A DNA stretch of 20,000 nucleotides from Chiloscyllium plagiosum (taxonomy: Eukaryota): NCBI RefSeq assembly GCF_004010195.1, contig NC_057718.1, positions 82,444,844 through 82,464,843 on the forward strand. Direction: 5' to 3'. The translations under genes and the position numbers were made by a program. Within the stretch, counting starts at the first letter, position 1, and every line of letters begins with the position of its first letter. Positions 2,253-19,613 of this stretch are shown here, piece after piece. A model generated the notes under the pieces. It was given only the letters and a program-made list of their open reading frames with translations. It was not told the DNA's origin and searched no databases.

Positions 2253-3338
2253 TAGTACTCTTTCTAGCAAAAGTCCTTCAGAAGTGCATATCTCTTTATC
2301 TTTTGGCATTGCAGACTGAGAGGATCCTGTGTCTCTTACTATTGTAGCCTCTTTACCTACTGCTGCTGTGCGAATAAACTTTACCTTCACAGGTATATGG
2401 TTTAAGAAGATCATGCATTTCCTTCTTAACCAACCTCCGACTAGGTTGTACATTCTGGTGCAGCTTTTTAGCCTCCACTGTGCTTTCTGTTGTCACTCCA
2501 ACAAATTCACTGGCTTATTCTTTTTTCCTACATCTGGCTTCCCAGTGCTTCTCCTAACTCACCAACACCATGATTTCATGTGGCCTACTTTATTGCAGTG
2601 AAAACACTAGAGCTTCTTAACTTCTCTGTCCCCTCCAAGGGTTTCCTTTTTACCCTGTGATAAGTTATCCATTATGATCTTCATCGAGATCTATTTTTTC
2701 TTTTCCACATGAGGATTTCTCTTTTTCCCAATTTCTGTCCCTCACGGATTCAAATTGATTCTGGAAGCCAAACTTTGCTGTATGGGCCAACTCATAATTG
2801 TCAGCCATTTTGGCTGCTAATCTTGCCATTTTAACTCTTTACTCTTTCACATGAGTTCTCCCTACTGCAGAAAGTAATTTTTTGAACTCCTGTCTAAATG
2901 CCAATTTCTGAAGTTTGAACTCTCTCTTTTTCTCTCTCTTCTGCTTTTAATTGTAATTCCTTTTCCTTTGCCTCTAACCCCAAGCTGCTACATTTTCAAT
3001 TGAATTTTAGCCATCTCTAAAGATTCTGATGGCATTTCCAGCATAATTAAATGCTGAGCTACTATTGTAATTATCTTTCCTTTCCTCACGGAAGGAGGCA
3101 GCTCTGACTCCAGCTCGTCTGCTAATTCTCACAGCTTGGCCTTAACCACTTTTTGTAAAACCCCTAAGGTCACTGCTTCCATCCCCCAGAAAACTCTTTG
3201 TAACTGAAAGAGCCATTGCTATCCTGAGCACTGTTTAAAACCAACCGAATCAAAACCCGGAACAAAAGACACCAACACCTACCAGTCGCTGCCTTCGAGT
3301 CCAACAACTCTAATCCCAATTTGGAACTACAGAAAAAA

Positions 3339-3357
3339 GTCCCACAATGAGCCTCCA
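3339..3357 (-). promoter_or_regulatory. Degenerate primer-binding site, possibly tRNA-Pro
   Basis: Minus strand TGGAGGCTCATTGTGGGAC resembles the tRNA-Pro PBS TGGGGGCTCGTCCGGGAT and starts 4 nt after the LTR end. Confidence 0.5.
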
Positions 3358-3360
3358 ATC

Positions 3361-3440
3361 TGTTATGGACCAGGCCAGACTCCCTCTAAACATTTAAAGA
3401 AGGCAGCCCAGACCCTAACTTTGCTAGTTGTTTTAAGCAG
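3361..3440 (-). repeat. 3' part of the 5' LTR of the Gmr1-like element (extent uncertain)
   Basis: On the minus strand the sequence ends ..CATAACA (canonical CA end) at 3361 and is followed within a few bases by a primer-binding-site (PBS)-like motif. Confidence 0.55.
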
Positions 3441-3515
3441 GAGAGATATTCATTCTTGATGTCATTTGGGTGATATAGATGTTGACATATGCTGCTTGGC
3501 ATTTCCAGAGGAGTA

Positions 3516-3714
3516 AGTGAGGTCTGCAGATGCTGGAGATCAGAGCTGAAAATGTGTTGCTGGAAAAGCGCAGCAGGTCAGGCAGCATCCAGGGAACAGG
3601 AGAATCGATGTTTCGGGCATAAGCCTTCCTGAAGAAGGGCTTATGCCCAAAATGTCGATTCTCCTGTTCCCTGGATGCTGCCTGACCTGCTGCGCTTTTC
3701 CAGCAACACATTTT
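3516..3714 (-). mobile_element. Short Penelope-like (pseudo-LTR-derived) fold-back element with hammerhead-like core
   Basis: Near-perfect inverted arms 3547-3628 / 3634-3716, unpaired ~30-nt tail 3516-3546, and an exact 16-bp flanking direct repeat catttccagaggagta (3500-3515, 3715-3730). Confidence 0.8.
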
Positions 3715-4434
3715 CATTTCCAGAGGAGTATCAATGCATGTTCTCTCATCAGACAATAGTCAGTGGTATTCCCAAAGTGGAAGCTATTATTGACATGCTT
3801 CTGATCACTGTAGTATTTATCAAGTTTTAGGAAACTGTTGTAACCAATCCCCTCATTTTAAATGGCAAGAACGTTGATGAAATATGATTTAATTATTAAA
3901 TCCAACTTGAGTAGTTTAATGACAGATAGGAATGTCTTCACCTTCAAGGCACTATATCATTTTGAACACATTCAATTATTTCCAGTAATCTTGATAGCTC
4001 ATTTCCACTATGTAAAGTTGAGTTAAACTCAAAAATGACTGAAGTGATTGAACTTGAATTCACTAAATTCATTTTTTTCTCTCCTTTCTTGTCTCTGAGC
4101 TTTTAGAAGTAAATTGTTTTCTATTCTGGTTGTATTGTTTTCAGTTAATTCCATGAAATTACAAAGGATTGCAATACTAAACAATCATTTGGTTCAACCA
4201 TACAACTTGGAAAGGAGATTGTATTTAATTTAAGATTGCATTTACAATGTCCCCATTTACTATGGTCATTTTGACAAATGGAAGCAGAACTCACTATCAT
4301 AGAAATTTTATAACACAGGAGGAAGTTACTTAGCTTATTGTCTCTGCACTGAGTGACAGGGAGAAGCACAATTGAATTCAAACTCAGGATCTCCTGTTTT
4401 ACTAGGCAAGAACTATAACTCACCAAGGCGTGGC

Positions 4435-5335
4435 TCAGTAAGTTTGCAGATGACACCAAAATTGGAGGTGTAGTGGACAGCGAAGGAGGTTACCTCAGAT
4501 TACAATGGGATCTGAACCAGATAGGCCGATGGGCTGAGGAGTGGCAGATGGAGGTTAATTTAGGTAAATGTGAGCTGTTGCATTTTGGGAAAGCAAACCT
4601 TAGCAGGACTTATACACTTAATGGTAAGATCCTAGGGAGTGTTGCTGAACAAAGAGACCTTCGAGTGCAGGTTCATAGCTCCTTGAAGGTGGAGTCGCAG
4701 ATAGATAGGATAGTGACGAAGGCGATTGGTATGCTTTCTTTTATTGGTCAGAGTATTGAGTACAGGAGTTGGTAGTATTGAGTACAGGACATTGGTTAGG
4801 CCACTTTTGGAATATTGCATGCAATTCTGGTCTCCTTCCTATCAGAAAGATGTGAAACTTGAAAGGATTCAGAAAGGATTTACAAGGATGTTGCCAGGGC
4901 TGGAGGATTTGAGCTAAAGGGAGAGGTTTTCCCTGGAACGTCAGAGGCTTAGGGGTGACCTTGTAGAGATTTATAAAATCATGACGAGCATGGATAGGAT
5001 AAATAGACAAAGGTTTTGCCCTGGGGTGGGAGAATCCAGAACTAGAGGGCATAGGTTTAAGGTGAGAGGGGAAAGATATAAAAGAGACCTAAGAGGCAAC
5101 TTTTTCACGCAGAGATTGATATATGTATGGAATGAGCTGCCAGAGGAAGTGGTGGAGGCTGGTACAATTGCAACATTTAAAAGGCATCTAGATGGATATA
5201 TAAATAGGAAGGGTTTGGAGGGATATGGGCCAGGTGCTGGCAGGTGGGTCTAGATTGGATTGGGATATCTGGTTGGCATGGACTGAGTTGGACCGAATGG
5301 TCTGTTTTCATGCTGTACATCTCTATGACTCTATG
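4435..5335 (+). mobile_element. 5'-truncated CR1-clade LINE (HER1-like), RT C-terminal half plus 3' UTR
   Basis: SKFADDTKIGGVVDSEGGYLRLQWDL..W; YRTLVRPLLEYCMQFWSP; RTRGHRFKV..RGNFFTQR..WNELP; 3' tail ctctatgactctatg. Confidence 0.95.
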
Positions 5336-6300
5336 GATGATCTGCGACTCTATGGAGACACACTGGAAGAAGCCATTGCAGACCATGATCAGGACTTATT
5401 GGGCAGAACAGTAACTCAGTGGTTATCATTGTTGCCTTTCACTGCCAGGAACCCGAGTTCTATTCCACCCTCAGATGACTGTGTGGAGTGTGCATGTTCT
5501 CCCTGTGTCTGCATGGATTTCCTCCGACAGTCTGAAGATATGCAAGTTAGATGGATTGGCCATGGGAAATGCAGGGTTACAGGGATTGGGTAGGGAAAAT
5601 TGGTTTGAATGGGATTTCTTCAGCGGGTCAGTGTGGACAGGATGGGCCAAATAGCCTGCTTCCACACTATAGGGACTGTATGAAGTCAAGTACAGTTCAA
5701 AGGACTTTGTCCAGATCCTAACAAGGTAAGGGCTGTACATATATTGCAGCAACTGACAGATGTGAAAGCCGTGCAACAACTGGATTTGTAAACGGCTTTG
5801 TGAAGTTCTTGCTTAATTTATCATCAGAGTGTGAGCCTTTAAGCAAACCCAGCACTCAGGACATACAATGGTATGGGCGCTGAGCAAGAAGAAGCTTTCA
5901 CTAGAATCAAGCAACTAGTGATGAAAATGCTAGTGCTGAGGAATTAAGACGTCACTAATGAAGTTGCCTTGCAATGTGACACTGATGAGACAAGACTCAG
6001 AGAAATCCTTATGGACAACCACATACATTTACAGTCAGTGTCAAATGAACATTGTTACACTCAGATAAAGCGCTTGTCTATTGTCTTTGCTTGTGAGCAT
6101 GTTAATCAACATCTGGTTAGGAGAGACGGAGTCAAAGTTAAAACAAACCATTAGCCACTTCAAAGCATCTTACTCACATCTGCTCTATCTGTTTCAAAGC
6201 ATCCACAAAGAATGTTACTTTGCTTGCAGAGATATCATCCGAACATGGCATATAGTAAAAAGAAATCCACATACGTGCAAATGTGCTGTTGAGAGCAGCA
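5334..6300 (+). mobile_element. Decayed Gypsy pol fragment (RT C-terminus and RNase H), interrupted by a SINE
   Basis: MDDLRLYGDTLEEAIADHDQDL (RT DD region), then after the SINE GLCPDPNKVRAV, AEQEEAFTRIKQLV, VALQCDTDETRL (RNase H, cf. LQCDAS) and IVFACEHVNQHL..VKTNH*PL (cf. TDHKPL). Confidence 0.85.
5401..5682 (+). mobile_element. HE1-type SINE, more diverged copy
   Basis: Head gggcagaacagtaactcagtgg, B-box-like gagttctattcc, body gtgtggagtgtgcatgttctccc, and CR1-like tail gcctgcttccacactataggga. Confidence 0.88.
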
Positions 6301-10676: not shown

Positions 10677-12180
10677 GAATTAGGAGCAGGAGTAAATCAC
10701 TTGGTCTTCTTGCCCACATCGCCATTGAACAGGATCATAGCTGATCTGATTGGGCTTCATTCTTGCCTATTCCTGATCACTTTTGATCCATTTTTTTTTC
10801 AAGAAGTAATTTTCCTCTGTCTGAAAAGTATTTAAGGACTCTTAACAGCCTTTTGAGGAAGAGAATTCGAAAGATTCACAACCTTATCTCTGTTTGGAAT
10901 GAGCTACCTCTTATTTTTACATAGTAACACCAAGTTCTAGATTCTCCCACATGAGGAACATCCTTCCCACATCCACTCTGTCTGAACAATTCAGGATTTT
11001 ACATTTTTCAATCTAGTTGCCTCTTGCTACGTTGAACTCAGCTGATATAAACTTAGCATGTCCACCCTTTCCTCACAAGACAAATTAGTCTGAAAAACCT
11101 TCTCTGCTTTTAATGCACTTAGATCCTTCCTTAGATAATGAAGACTCCAGATGGGGTCCCATTAAAGCCCTGTATAACTGAAATATAATCTCCCTAATTT
11201 TGTATTTTATTCCCCTCAGAATAAAACAAAACCTTCTATTTGTTTTCCTAATTAGTTTCTGCACCTGCACACTAGCCTTTTGTGTTCATGCATGAGATAT
11301 TTAAGAGCTCTGAAATCTCTCATCATTTAGTGCTTTCCCTATTTTCCTATTTTACACTCAATTTTCCAAACCTTTATCCTATTTATATCCCTTTGTAGCC
11401 TTCTTATATCCTCTTCATAACTTACTTTCCTACCTAACATTGTGTCATTAGCAAATGTAGCAACCATATCTTAGATCCCTTCAGCCAATTGACTTGTATG
11501 AATTGCAAAAGTCGGAGGCATATCTTTTCCAAACAGAAAATGGCCAACTATCTCTATTCTGTTTCTTGTTAGCTAACCTGTCTAGCTTTGCAGATATGAT
11601 AGCCTCAGCACCTTAACATTTCATTTTCCACTATAACTTTTTATGTGGTAACTTACCTATACCTTCTGGAAATCCAAGACCAGTATATCCACCAATTCCC
11701 CCTTTATCATTGTTACTTTTTCAAATGACTCCAATAAATTGGTGAAACATGATTTCCCTTCCATGTTGACTCTGCTTGATTACCTTGAACTTATCCAAGT
11801 GCTCTGCTGTAACATCTTTCAGAGTTGTTTCTACGATCTTCTCCATGACAAATATTAAGCCTATAGCTTCCTGCTTTATTTTTCCTTCCCTATTTGAATA
11901 AAGGAGTTAACGCTCATTATTTTCCAAACTAATGGGAACCTTACCCAAATCTTGGAAAATTAAAATCAAAGCTTCAACTATTTCATTAGTCATTTCTTTT
12001 TTTTAAATTCGAGACTGTGGTGCTGGAAAAGCACAGCAGGTCAGACAGCATCTGAGGAGCAGGACTATTGACATTTCGGGCAAAAGCCCTTCATCAGGAA
12101 AGGTTTCCATCTCCTTATTTTCTATTATTAATTGCCCAAATTCAATTTCTATGACACCAAAATTCAAAATCAATACCTTT
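10677..12180 (-). mobile_element. Old CR1-clade LINE fragment (second subfamily)
   Basis: Minus-strand LDFQKV (~11660-11680), MVATFANDT (degenerate FADD, ~11442-11468), QVQKLIRKTN..ILRGIKYK..LYRALMGPHLE (11140-11270). 3' UTR atcagctatgatcctgttcaatgg..tactcctgctcctaattc. Confidence 0.85.
12005..12100 (-). mobile_element. Single-arm copy of the Penelope-like element with the most intact hammerhead-like core
   Basis: Homologous to the arms at 3547-3716. Minus strand reads CTGATGA AGGGC TTTT GCCC GAAA TGTC (12097-12070). Confidence 0.8.
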
Positions 12181-12288: not shown

Positions 12289-12800
12289 AGCGCAGTTTTG
12301 GTCTCCTCACCTCAGGAAGGATATCATTGCCATCGAGGGAGTGCAGTGAAAGTTCACCAGACTTGATCCCAGAATGGCAGGACTGTCTGATGAAGAGAGA
12401 TTGGGCAAACCTGGGCTGTATTCTCTGGAGTTTTGAAGAATGAGGGCAGATCTCATTGAAACTTACAAAATACTTCAAGGGATAGACAGATGCAAGTAAT
12501 ACATAACCCTGGGTCGGGGAGTCTAGAACCCGGAAGGGCTACAATTTAAAAGTAAGAGGGATGCCACTTAGATCCAAGATTAAGAGAAATGTTTTCCTCA
12601 AAGGGCTGTGAACTTTTGGAATGATCTACCACTGAGGACTGTGAAAGCTCAGTCTTTGATTATGTTTAAGGTAGAGGTTGATAGATTTCTGAGTTCCAAT
12701 GGCATATGGGGTAAAGGGTGGTTAAGGCATTGAACTGTTCAGCTGTGATCCTGTTGAATGGTGATAGGCTCAACAGGCTGTATGGCCAATTCTTCTTCTT
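12289..12800 (+). mobile_element. CR1-clade LINE 3' fragment
   Basis: QFWSPHLRKDIIAIEGVQ*KFTRL; RMRADLIETYKILQGID; 3' UTR cagctgtgatcctgttgaatgg..ggctgtatggcc. Confidence 0.9.
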
Positions 12801-12802
12801 TT

Positions 12803-13113
12803 TAGATTACTTACAGTGTGGAAACAGGCCCTTCGGCCCAACAGGTCCACACGGACCCTCCGAAGAGTAACCCACCCAGACCCATCTCCCTCTGACTAAT
12901 GCACCTAACACTATATGCAATTTAGCACAGTCAATTCACCTGACCTGCACATCTTTGTGACTGTGGGAGGAAAACAGAGCACCCGGAGGAAACCCACGCA
13001 GACACAGGGAGAATGTGCAAACTCCACACAGACAGTCACCCGAGGCTGGGATTGAACCTGGGACCCTGGTGCTGTGAGGCAGCAGTGCTAACCACTGAGC
13101 CACCGTGCCACCC
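12803..13113 (-). mobile_element. HE1-type SINE, least diverged copy, tail-to-tail with the CR1 fragment
   Basis: Minus-strand head GGGTGGCACGGTGGCTCAGTGG (A box) and GGTTCAATCCC (B box); several CpGs retained. Confidence 0.93.
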
Positions 13114-13261
13114 AAAGTATGTTCAACACAAACCTCTCCATGAGCGTAGGTGGTATGGCATGACTCAGCTACTTGTAGCGTGCAATGTAGCCAGTCCCAT
13201 GCTATGCAACACCAGGGACAGGTCGATTCACAACAGATAGTGAACCTAGGTGTTTGTGTTC

Positions 13262-13615
13262 CATGGTTCTATGTACAGCCCAAGACACTAACATAATCAA
13301 AGTCCCTTCCCACCCTGGTTATAATCTCATCCAACCTTGTCTGTCAAGGAGAAGTTACAAAAGCTTAAACACACAAACTAACAGATTCAAGAACAGTGTT
13401 TGCCCGCAGTTATTTGACTTCTCAAATCTTAAATTTAATGTTGACCTCGCACTGTGTGCACCCTCTCTGCAGCTGTAACATTGTATTCTTGGCTCTGTTC
13501 TATTACCCTATGCATTTTATATATGATCTGCCTGTACTGCATGCAAAACAAAACTTTTCACTGTATCTAGGTACATGTAACAATAATAAATCAAATCAAA
13601 TCAAATCAAATCAAA
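13262..13615 (+). mobile_element. Rex1/Babar LINE 3' fragment with microsatellite tail
   Basis: VLCTAQ..IIKVPSHPGYNLIQP..RRSYKSLNTQTNRFKNS, then aataataaa and (tcaaa)5 at 13591-13615. Confidence 0.87.
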
Positions 13616-15734: not shown

Positions 15735-16135
15735 AAAAGATGTTGTGAAACCTGAAGGTGTTCAGAAAAGATTTACAAGAATGTTGCTGGAGTTAGAGGA
15801 TTTGAGCAATAGGAAGAGGCTGAATAGGCTGGGGCTGCTTTCCCTAGAGTCAAAATTGGAGTGGTGCTGGAAAAGTACAGCAGGTCAGGCAGCATCCGAG
15901 GAGCAGGAGCCCTCATTCTTGACGAAAGGCTTTTGCCCGAAACGTCAATTTTCCTGCTCCTCGGAAGCTGCCTGACCTGCTGTGTTTTTCCAGCACCACT
16001 CTAATCTTGACTCTAATCTCCAACATCTGTAGTCCCCACTTCTGCCTGTTTTCCCTGGAACATAGGAACCTGAGGGAGGACCTTATAGAGATTTACAAAA
16101 TCATGAAGGACATGGTCTTTTTCCCAAGGTAGGGT
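15735..16135 (+). mobile_element. CR1 (HER1-like) fragment interrupted by the Penelope-like hairpin
   Basis: KDVVKPEGVQKRFTRMLLELEDLSNRKRLNRLGL / FSLEHRNLREDLIEIYKIMK, homologous to 4845-4990. Confidence 0.9.
15846..16045 (+). mobile_element. Second fold-back Penelope-like element, opposite orientation to the 3516 copy
   Basis: Inverted arms 15845-15908 / 15952-16015; loop contains TTGACGA AAGGC TTTT GCCC GAAACGTC; tail 16016-16045; TSD ctgctttccct (15835-15845) / ctgttttccct (16046-16056). Confidence 0.82.
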
Positions 16136-16814: not shown

Positions 16815-19340
16815 TTTTTGGGGACCCTTACTGAGCTGCTGAGAGACCATTTGATATGTGGGATTAATTATGGAACTTCGCAAAAATGCCTACTAGCGGA
16901 AGTCCAACCAGACTTCAAACAGACATCACAATTGGCTTTATCATTGGAAAATTTGGCAAATGGAGCATATGAGTTACAGGGACTTGAGGAACGCCCCTTG
17001 AGTGTAGACAGTTGTGTAGCCTCACTCAGGACATATCCTGATCAGAGGGACTCTGGGTCAGCCCACAGCAAAACCCCAAAACCAAGCCAAGCCTCAGCCA
17101 AATGGTTCAAATTGTCTTGGGGATCCTGGCCAGCAAGTCATTGTAGTTGCTGCCAGAATACAGACTCGAGACAGCTAAAGAGTCCTACTAGACCTAAACT
17201 GAGTGAGATAATTCAGAGGCCAGCATCCAGGAGAGTTCATACCCTGGAAAGTCCACCTGCATCTGGTTTGGACCAGTTAAATTGCTTAGCAACATCCACA
17301 TTAGAACCAATCAAAATAAATGTCTGGTTAAATGATCGTCTGGTTCTAATGGAGGTCAATACCCATGTGGCCGCATCAGTGATCGCAGAATCAGATTTTA
17401 ACAAAATTCTCTTTGGACCCCCAACCTTAACTTTGCACAACATCTCAGCTAGGCCAAGAACCTATAACAGGGAACCTTTACAGATTAAGGCTAGAACTTC
17501 GGTTCTGGTCTCTTATGAGAAGCAGCTGGTCCAGTTACCACTGATTGTAGTGAAGGCTTGGGCCCAAGCTTAATGGGGTGAAATTGGTTGTGAGAGATTC
17601 ACTTAGATTGGCTCAATATTTTTCAATTAGAAAATGGCTGCCTAAGTGAAATTCTAAGTAAATACCCGGAAGTCTTCTTGCAAGGTCTAGGGATTATCAG
17701 AGGAGCCAAGGCCACCTTGTATGTTGACCAGGAAGCAGTTCCTCGATTCTGCAAGGCCTGTCCAGTGCCATTTGCCTTATGGGCAAAAGCAGAGGCAGAC
17801 ATCAGGCGCTGCAAAGTGAAGAAGTCATCAAACCAGTCCAATTTATGGAATGGGCAGTACCGGTCATCGTGAAGCCCAATGCATCAGTTCATCTTTGTGG
17901 GGAATTGAAACAAATGGTAAACTGTTTTTGCAGCTGGATAGATACCCAGTCACTGGGATAGAGGGTTTATATGTGATTGTCATGAGCAAAAGTCACTGCT
18001 AGATATGGCTGAACTCCACCAGGGCCATCCAAGAGTCTCCAGAATGAAGACGTTGGCAAGGTGTGGGCGAGTTGCTGGCGGTAATCTTTGTTCTTGTTGG
18101 CACTCTGGGCACTGCCGCACCAATGTAGTTGTGGACCTGGTGGTCAGGCCTGGATGCAGACACAACTATCGCAGTGCCCAGAGTGCCAAAAAGAACAAAA
18201 GGTATTTCCAGTAACTTCCCCACATCCGTGGGAATGGCCAGGTGAACCTTGGACTCAGTTGCATGTCAACTATGCAGGTCCTTTTATAGGTTCAGTATTC
18301 TTTCTCATTACAGATGTCCACTCAAAGTGGTTGGACATCCATAGAGTCCATTCTTCAAACACAGGGATGACGATAGAAAAACTGCACGCATCTTTTTCAA
18401 TACACAGAGTCCTGCAAGTGTTGGTCACAGATAATAGGCCATTGTTTATCAGCAGGGAATTTAGGTATTCCCGAAAATCAAATGGCATTTGACATATCAG
18501 AAGGGCTCCATACCATCCATCGTCTTTTGGTCTTGCAGAAAACTCAGTCCTAACTTTGAAGACAGGCTTAAAGAAACAACCTTGCAAGATGCCAATCTGT
18601 CATGGTTCTTATTTGATTATAGAAGCACTCCACAACAAGGGATAGCACTGGCAGATTTGCTAATGGGTAGAACATCAGGTTAAGTCTGATCTTCCAGGAC
18701 CTGGGGGTGGGATGGGTGAAACAGCTTCAGGAATGCCAGTGCCAGGCACAAGACTCCACCCAGTGAGAGGGGCAGTTGGATAAAGGGTGAGAAGTTTGGT
18801 GTAGGAATCACAGAAATGGCCTGCACGGGTAAGAGGCATGGACAATGCGAGATCAGGACCAGTGACGTATAAAGTTTGTGTAGGTGTGACAGTCCTGAAC
18901 AAGCATGTGGACCATATGAAAGCCACTCCTCGGAACAGTCAGAAAGGCTGCCAGAAACTGTGGGTTCACCGTCTCCATCGAATGTTATCGAGTCCTCAGA
19001 ATCAGAGTTAGATATAATGGATGTAGCCACCTTAACACCTTTGCTGCTGGAAGAAGAGACTGACATTCTACCGAGGTGATCCTGGTCCATGAGGCGAGCT
19101 CCCACACCTAACATGCCACCCTGGATTGGACACCAAATCAGAGGCACCTGACCTGGTGCTAAATGCCCCAGGAGGCTCCCTATGAAAAAGAACCAACTTA
19201 TGGCCTTGGACTCGGAGAGAGAGGGATGTAGTAATTGTAATGAGGTCAGCACTTGAAGATCATAGAATATGAGTTCTCTAATTGGTGCTGTTAGTCTGGC
19301 CCAATCAGCGATCCCTGGCTGACAGATATAAACAGGAATG
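16815..19340 (+). mobile_element. Decayed, internally deleted Gypsy LTR retrotransposon (gag, protease, start of RT, integrase, PPT, partial 3' LTR)
   Basis: gag LRDHLICGIN..QKCLLAE; protease MEVNTHVAASVI (cf. MEVDTGA); RT start PRFCKACPVPFAL..VIKPVQFMEWAVPVIVKPNASVHLCG; integrase ELHQGHP..QCPECQ..PWEWPGEPWTQLHVNYAGPF..DVHSKW..VTDN. Confidence 0.92.
19214..19340 (+). promoter_or_regulatory. Polypurine tract and start (U3) of the 3' LTR with CCAAT and TATA boxes
   Basis: ggagagagaggga (19214-19226) directly followed by TGTAGT (LTR start, 19227); ccaatc at 19301; tataaa at 19327. Confidence 0.75.
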
Positions 19341-19351
19341 GTGTCCTCGGC

Positions 19352-19613
19352 GCTGTCACCCTGGGCAGGTACCGGGGCGGGCTGCCCCAGAGGTGGTCGA
19401 AAGGTGCTGAGGGTGGTTAGTGAAGCCGGAAGGTGGGTAGGCCGTTCTGACTGCTGTCACCCTGGGCGGGTACCGGGGCGGGCTGTCCTAGAGATGGTCG
19501 AAAGGTGTGTCAGGGCGGACCGAGGACTGGAAGGGGCATGGGGTGGACCGAGAACCGGAAGGTGGGTAGGGGCAGGCTGCCTTAGAGTGGTCGGAAGGTG
19601 GGAGGGGCGGGGG
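19352..19613 (+). repeat. G-rich imperfect tandem repeat (101-bp period plus shorter subunits)
   Basis: gctgtcaccctgggcrggtaccggggcgggctg starts at 19352 and 19453; the motif ygraaggkg recurs six times. Confidence 0.85.

Follow-up and report, generated by a model that had tools for sequence, protein, structure and literature searches.

A likely Penelope-like pseudo-LTR stub with inverted arms in the Chiloscyllium plagiosum genome, and how its hairpin may have formed

Structure of the insertion and its target site

The window analysed here is a 20,000-nucleotide stretch of Chiloscyllium plagiosum DNA. At 3500-3730 it contains a fold-back insertion in which two inverted arms and a tail at one end only are enclosed by a target-site duplication (TSD). 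The span between the two 16-mers of the TSD is 199 bp and carries no ORF, so that the insertion would consist of pseudo-LTR (pLTR) sequence only. Its parts are listed below, in terms that follow its likely assignment to the Penelope-like elements (PLEs).

3500-3515, plus strand: left copy of the TSD, 16 bp, exact direct repeat
3516-3546, minus strand: one-sided tail of 31 nt, a putative PLE-type extension past the proximal end, from arm and repeat analysis; a tail of about 30 nt occupies the same place in the copy at 15.9 kb
3547-3625, minus strand: left arm, the putative pseudo-LTR body, its hammerhead sense on the minus strand, cut short at the 5' end within stem II and so without a CUGA box
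3625-3637, no strand assigned: inversion junction of left arm end and right arm start, with a possible 3-nt overlap and one base lost
3626-3716, plus strand: right arm, with the hammerhead sense on the plus strand and without a tail, starting just upstream of the CUGA box
3627-3658, plus strand: minimal type-I hammerhead motif, broken, from a descriptor search and the published PLE consensus (PMC4209133 Fig. S3)
3715-3730, plus strand: right copy of the TSD, 16 bp, exact direct repeat

In the repeat comparison of the window the inverted arms lie at 3547-3630 and 3633-3716, are 84 nt long each and are 94% complementary. An alternative register with one bulged G gives arms of 79+3 bp around a 5-nt loop (3629-3633), which bears out the two arms of about 82 bp with few mismatches and a 5-nt loop that an earlier note on this DNA had described. 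Outside the apex the arms mismatch at three of 79 positions (3609/3654, 3610/3653 and 3614/3649). The apex words quoted in the earlier note for both strands were correct on re-reading of the letters, and of the tail that it gave as one-sided and 30 nt long the one-sidedness stands but the measured length is 31 nt, or 38 nt counting the overlap with the TSD. At the opposite end the final 2 nt of the right arm are the first 2 nt of the right TSD copy. The predicted fold of 3500-3735 reaches -173.1 kcal/mol (z = -22.1), and none of 200 shuffles was equally good. A search of the fold-back with Rfam, the kind of hammerhead-model search that the earlier note had suggested, gave no hammerhead match, though a minimal-hammerhead descriptor did match, and returned only miRNA hairpin models below threshold; these, mir-680, mir-335 and MIR4414, reached 25-37 bits where their gathering scores are 64-104, and they were dismissed as generic hairpins.

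The exact 16-mer is the sole repeat of at least 8 nt in the search box and occurs only twice in the 20-kb window, in keeping with the perfect 16-bp flanking duplication claimed beforehand. When 20,000 random window pairs set 215 nt apart were compared, a 12-mer was held in common by 51, every one of them at the focal locus.

The state of the site in related organisms was read from contigs of public runs aligned to 3200-4050 at 85% likeness, using four of the 24 runs listed: X2 (DNA of the same species), X8 and X14 (DNA of the related organisms B and C, respectively) and X21 (RNA). In organism C a 215-letter contig with a depth of 39.2 aligns from 3715 onward, beginning at its letter 86. At 3461-3489 the sole depth is the same 39.2, as is that of a variant at 3451, which lies 37 letters from the end of its piece, a spacing that places the start of the piece at 3415, which is 85 letters before 3500. 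Organism B gives the same pattern with a depth of 9.77 and letter 83. The simplest reading of these matching numbers, the joint itself being absent among the 15 joints listed, is that in both organisms one contig spans the left flank, a single 16-mer and the right flank. In organism C the 16-mer appears to be unaltered, since both differences of the right piece are explained (3751 and 3833). Such an inferred empty site with one 16-mer in two related organisms argues for a true lineage-specific insertion with target duplication, and the low divergence of the flanks (2/130 in organism C, 5/207 in organism B) suggests that the insertion is young.

Other repeats occupy much of the neighbourhood. 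Just left of the insertion, at 3345-3441, lies a separate repeat, deeply covered in all three DNA runs, that has one continuation in common past 3441 and is possibly the end of an LTR. A SINE-like repeat of about 350 bp, which we take to resemble the shark HE1 SINE, is present in four copies (428-776, 1927-2252, 5399-5685 on the minus strand and 12798-13115), and a decayed 3' fragment of a LINE reverse transcriptase lies at 4419-5253 (Pfam RVT_1, E 0.002, below the cut-off). A 54-nt inverted duplicate (18062-18115 and 18171-18224, 81%) sits in a decayed integrase-bearing LTR-retrotransposon region (Pfam rve at 18085-18489, E 1e-4, below the cut-off) and resembles a local inverted insertion of downstream sequence. 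The window also holds a 5-mer microsatellite at 13588-13615 and GC-rich direct repeats at 19352-19609 (55 nt, 93%, spacing 101).

The hammerhead motif and its repeat family

The motif in the right arm is composed of CUGANGA at 3629-3635, an extra A at 3636, a stem II of 4 bp (3637-3640/3645-3648), a GAAA box, two bases and UH, with the cleavage-site C at 3656 and a helix I of just 2 bp. The focal copy deviates at position G12, where 3649 is A, and at position 15.2, where 3653 is T. G12 is required for hammerhead catalysis. The minimal-hammerhead descriptor matched at 3629 on the plus strand with one core mismatch and at 12097 on the minus strand with none, and had no match in 40 shuffles. The majority letters of the family are G at 3649 and C at 3653, and 63-74% of the summed contig depth of three DNA runs has G at position G12. 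By folding prediction the pairing probability of stem II is 0.0 in either full-length strand but exceeds 0.99 when the right arm is folded by itself; in transcripts of a full strand the long hairpin would therefore form at the expense of stem II. Judged from these letters the hammerhead motif, of the pattern CUGANGA-H, stem II with G-C and GAAA-N-N-UH, is real at the family level and dead at the focal locus. The hammerhead-like core that the earlier note saw at the apex thus fits the minimal hammerhead of PLEs but is broken here, where G12 is A and the other arm lacks the CUGA box; its expectation of core conservation across copies agrees with the family letters and the intact core at 12097, and an active ribozyme in the focal copy found no support.

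Two related copies lie elsewhere in the window.

12011-12105, minus strand: related solo copy, about 81% alike, with an intact minimal hammerhead core at 12097 and without a tail, a long inverted arm or a clear TSD
15835-16058, plus strand: older fold-back copy inside a LINE-like 3' fragment, with a 64-nt short arm that stops before the hammerhead and a long arm with a decayed core and a tail

The TSD of the 15.9-kb copy is, by eye, a degenerate repeat of about 13 bp (15835-15847 and 16046-16058) with 2 mismatches and an exact core of 7 bp, and an uninterrupted paralogue at 4851-4993 displays its target region. The arm of this copy that reaches the hammerhead also bears the tail, whereas the focal copy has the reverse arrangement at its apex.

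In the same-species DNA run 72,311 contigs aligned, and the summed contig depth, which is not a copy number, is about 3-8 million over the element compared with about 9-30 over the unique flanks. Together with the three copies in the 20-kb window this depth points to a family of very large size in each of the three organisms. The tails of family copies tend to stop at 3509/3510, past which the flanks are unlike (agreement 0.33-0.35). Large clusters of loose ends also lie at 3625 and 3626, the latter at the place where the focal copy no longer matches; the letters past 3626 agree poorly (0.33-0.34) bar a few common bases, so that many family copies seem to stop a little upstream of the CUGA box. 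Further loose ends, at 3549-3553 and 3709-3710, are mixed up with differences between subfamilies and give no clear cluster at the proximal start site. The letter of the focal copy at 3592 makes up about 37% of the depth in C. plagiosum (X2), 2% in organism B and 6% in organism C, a skew that is consistent with a subfamily expanded in this lineage.

Among the 15 joints listed (570 more exist), 14 link an inverted arm ending at 3537-3589 to a sense arm from 3626/3627, with varying letters inserted between the arms. On either side of such a joint the contig supplies only 18-27 letters, compared at 85% likeness, and the joints cannot reveal copies with the focal copy's own apex, of which there may be a minority. 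No apex breakpoint or structure is shared among the three window copies and the 15 listed joints, and the three architectures in three copies and the varied joints argue against a fixed fold-back family. The discrete non-autonomous family proposed in the earlier note is thus unsupported, and the variable breakpoints that it had named beforehand as speaking against such a family are what the inverted-arm ends among the listed joints display.

The RNA run (X21, of which about 2% of a single-cell poly(A) run was covered) yielded 2,914 aligned reads on both strands, 98% of which continue into unlike sequence. In this small portion, a weak test, no read fell on the unique flanks 3461-3489 and 3751-4050 and no clustered ends were seen, and none of the RNA runs is listed as containing the focal locus. 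The reads show family sequence within other transcripts and say nothing firm on the focal locus or on cleavage.

Penelope-like affinity and the origin of the hairpin

PLE insertions of the EN+ type are described as carrying a head-to-head inverted, 5'-truncated copy, a tail of 30-40 bp at one end, a short TSD and a hammerhead in the pLTR (PMC8557442, PMC3846280, PMC8969392). The focal insertion has an inverted 5'-truncated pLTR copy at its 5' end, of which 15845-16015 is a second example, a tail of matching length at one end only with the fixed family end at 3509/3510, and a short TSD that is apparently single in organisms B and C. On the strength of tail, inverted arm, TSD and family-level hammerhead the focal element is likely a PLE pseudo-LTR stub, and the Penelope-type pseudo-LTR anatomy recognised in the earlier note (minimal hammerhead, inverted arm, one-sided tail and true TSD) was supported. 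It differs from the published insertions in that it is without any ORF, its autonomous partner being putative, and its TSD measures 16 bp as against 8-10 bp in the rotifer PLE examples.

EN+ PLEs are defined by a parent element that encodes a telomerase-like RT together with a GIY-YIG endonuclease, and their long copies have direct pLTRs on both sides of an ORF as a partial tandem. The window contains no long copy, and no RT or GIY-YIG domain was found by Pfam among its 93 ORFs, which is a weak test. A frame is open from the hammerhead through the tail (3511-3624, minus strand, with an ATG at 3588 of that strand), and the same frame is open in the long arm of the 15.9-kb copy (15923-16045, plus strand), which belongs to another subfamily, with an in-frame 3-nt difference; it could be the start of a PLE ORF, encoding its N-terminus. 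Protein searches with this tail-spanning frame, again weak tests, gave no match, the best Atlas score of 0.81 being a lead only. DNA-motif scans had 0 hits in viral, metagenome and prokaryote genome contigs, collections that are not expected to hold the host, and a scan for bacterial promoters and terminators, which is irrelevant to a eukaryotic host, returned nothing.

Like the minimal hammerheads of metazoan PLEs, the motif combines CUGANGA, one extra nucleotide, a stem II opening with G-C, GAAA, a two-base palindrome and UH, but with 4 bp in stem II and 2 bp in helix I the focal copy is shorter than most of them and its G12 is changed (PMC4209133). The same paper describes PLE hammerheads that occur as pairs on opposite strands, separated by 100-700 bp, and mostly as single truncated copies, and its searchable supplement contains no cartilaginous fish names. 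The non-LTR retrozymes are similarly non-coding, PLE-derived and equipped with a type-I hammerhead (bioRxiv 10.64898/2026.07.22.740005). They are, however, head-to-tail tandem units each with a complete hammerhead, whereas the focal insertion is head-to-head, single and broken, and no two head-to-tail units occur in the window, where a 5-mer array is the one tandem repeat.

Several details of the letters bear on how the two arms arose. They carry matching subfamily letters at the mirrored sites 3570/3693, 3592/3671 and 3596/3667, and their differences at 3609, 3649 and 3653 are CpG transitions away from the family letter. The tail is present on the left arm only and 3626-3637 on the right arm only, so that neither arm is a plain copy of the other. 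Read outward from a target 3' end, each strand of the element is complementary to the hammerhead-sense RNA, which is what a cDNA would show. The final 7 nt of the left TSD match the terminal 7 nt of the family at six of seven positions (chance of at least 6/7 in a fixed register about 0.13%), the exception being 3514, where the target has T and the family A (about 94-98% of depth); these overlapping bases appear to be derived from the target, since the empty site has them. We infer from this arrangement that a single staggered cut supplied both primers for two cDNAs, begun at RNA sites 31-38 nt apart, and the halves of the focal copy were probably copied separately at the landing site.

It is therefore proposed, as a probable account, that the locus holds a dead-on-arrival, pLTR-only insertion of an abundant Penelope-like element whose hairpin was made in a single insertion by two target-primed cDNAs. 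An RT/GIY-YIG protein of a PLE encoded elsewhere would cut both target strands 16 nt apart. The top-strand 3' end would pair via 7 nt, with one mismatch, with the element RNA at a distal start site and be extended into the tail and left arm, while the bottom-strand 3' end, paired via 2 nt at a proximal site lying 31-38 nt deeper, would give rise to the right arm. Both cDNAs would halt at the hammerhead or a little short of it, the point at which most copies end; they would then be joined head to head and filled in, and three CpG transitions would afterwards create the arm mismatches and the loss of G12. In the twin priming of LINE-1 elements two target 3' ends prime on one RNA, which leaves an inversion inside the TSD, and the two cDNAs correspond for the most part to separate stretches of the RNA. 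In the focal copy, in contrast, they would cover the same 79 nt and so form a hairpin.

The closest biochemical parallel is PAc, a Poseidon element of the lizard Anolis, whose protein in vitro cuts and extends both strands, uses an uncleaved RNA template and starts at two adjacent internal sites that bound the tail (PMC11167929). The ORF in which PAc starts has its beginning at stem II, 111-118 nt away from the start, and in the focal copy the distance from the start of stem II to the end of the tail is 111 nt, or 118 nt with the shared 7 nt, a likeness that may be partly coincidence. PAc prefers AT-rich cut sites and shows no homology between its initiation sites and the cut DNA. The focal target differs in having a 7-nt overlap, a single case, and its AT content is 56%.

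A PLE pseudo-LTR stub could also have acquired its hairpin by self-priming, a snap-back of the cDNA or of an antisense template, followed by a template jump. Self-priming on an antisense template is the explanation favoured where PLEs show head-to-head inversions and palindromes at the junction (PMC3846280), the focal apex has a 3-nt fold-back around a loop of 5 nt, and the 15.9-kb copy fits, its short arm being a subset of the long arm. For the focal copy, however, one snap-back is insufficient, and the pure snap-back of one tail-primed cDNA is ruled out on logic, as each arm holds sequence absent from the other; moreover, both outer junctions have bases in common with the target. Self-priming is hence regarded as unlikely here, though a single locus is not sufficient to decide between it and two cDNAs. 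Less likely still is a non-autonomous fold-back family whose transcripts PLE proteins would re-insert in trans as whole units. The very high copy number and the recent subfamily expansion would suit such a family, its same-apex copies would be invisible as joints, and non-autonomous PLE derivatives have been described (PMC8557442; bioRxiv 10.64898/2026.07.22.740005), yet the differing architectures in the window, the variable joints, the loose-end clusters at 3625/3626 with unlike flanks, the lack of a retrozyme-like tandem arrangement and, weakly, the lack of clustered RNA ends all speak against it.

Long terminal inverted repeats with a TSD are also what a MITE or other DNA-transposon palindrome would present, and a LINE-mobilised repeat might resemble a PLE end by chance. 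This is considered very improbable in view of the asymmetric tail, the 12-kb solo copy without an inverted arm, the unequal TSD lengths (16 and about 13 bp) and the complete match to the minimal hammerhead, which no shuffle reproduced. Chimeric reads can yield long palindromes, and X2 may itself be the source of the assembly. An assembly artefact or chance hairpin nevertheless deserves next to no credence: the arms differ at three CpG sites, the X2 contigs cover both junctions with 0-1 differences, though they reach only 21-22 letters into the element and so fall below the 31-letter rule, and besides the TSD there are the apparent empty sites in relatives.

Implications for Penelope-like elements

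As a lone locus the insertion carries little weight, being a dead stub among very many, and its value is that of a clean mechanistic specimen. The type of structure is already described in print (PMC8557442, PMC3846280 and PMC8969392, with PMC4209133 for opposite-strand pairs and truncated single motifs). To this the locus adds an apparent empty site, microhomology on two sides and an argument for separately templated arms, and as a young insertion it exposes both junctions at base level. Such stubs also call for care in annotation, as they can be mistaken for MITEs or miRNA hairpins and escape Rfam.

The origin of the inverted pseudo-LTRs and tails of PLEs is described as still undefined (PMC8557442), and a search by title and the start of the abstract, covering sources other than subscription journals, found no twin-priming account for PLEs. 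With slightly more doubt than belief, the stub could be a direct record of PLE twin priming, in which the RT, perhaps as a dimer, extends the two 3' overhangs of a staggered cut, starting at two fixed sites on the RNA and aided by microhomology between target and RNA, and both cDNAs stop near an uncleaved hammerhead. If true, a single step would account for both the inverted pseudo-LTR and the one-sided tail of PLEs, and twin priming would be testable by counting the many young stubs of this genome that have empty sites in relatives.
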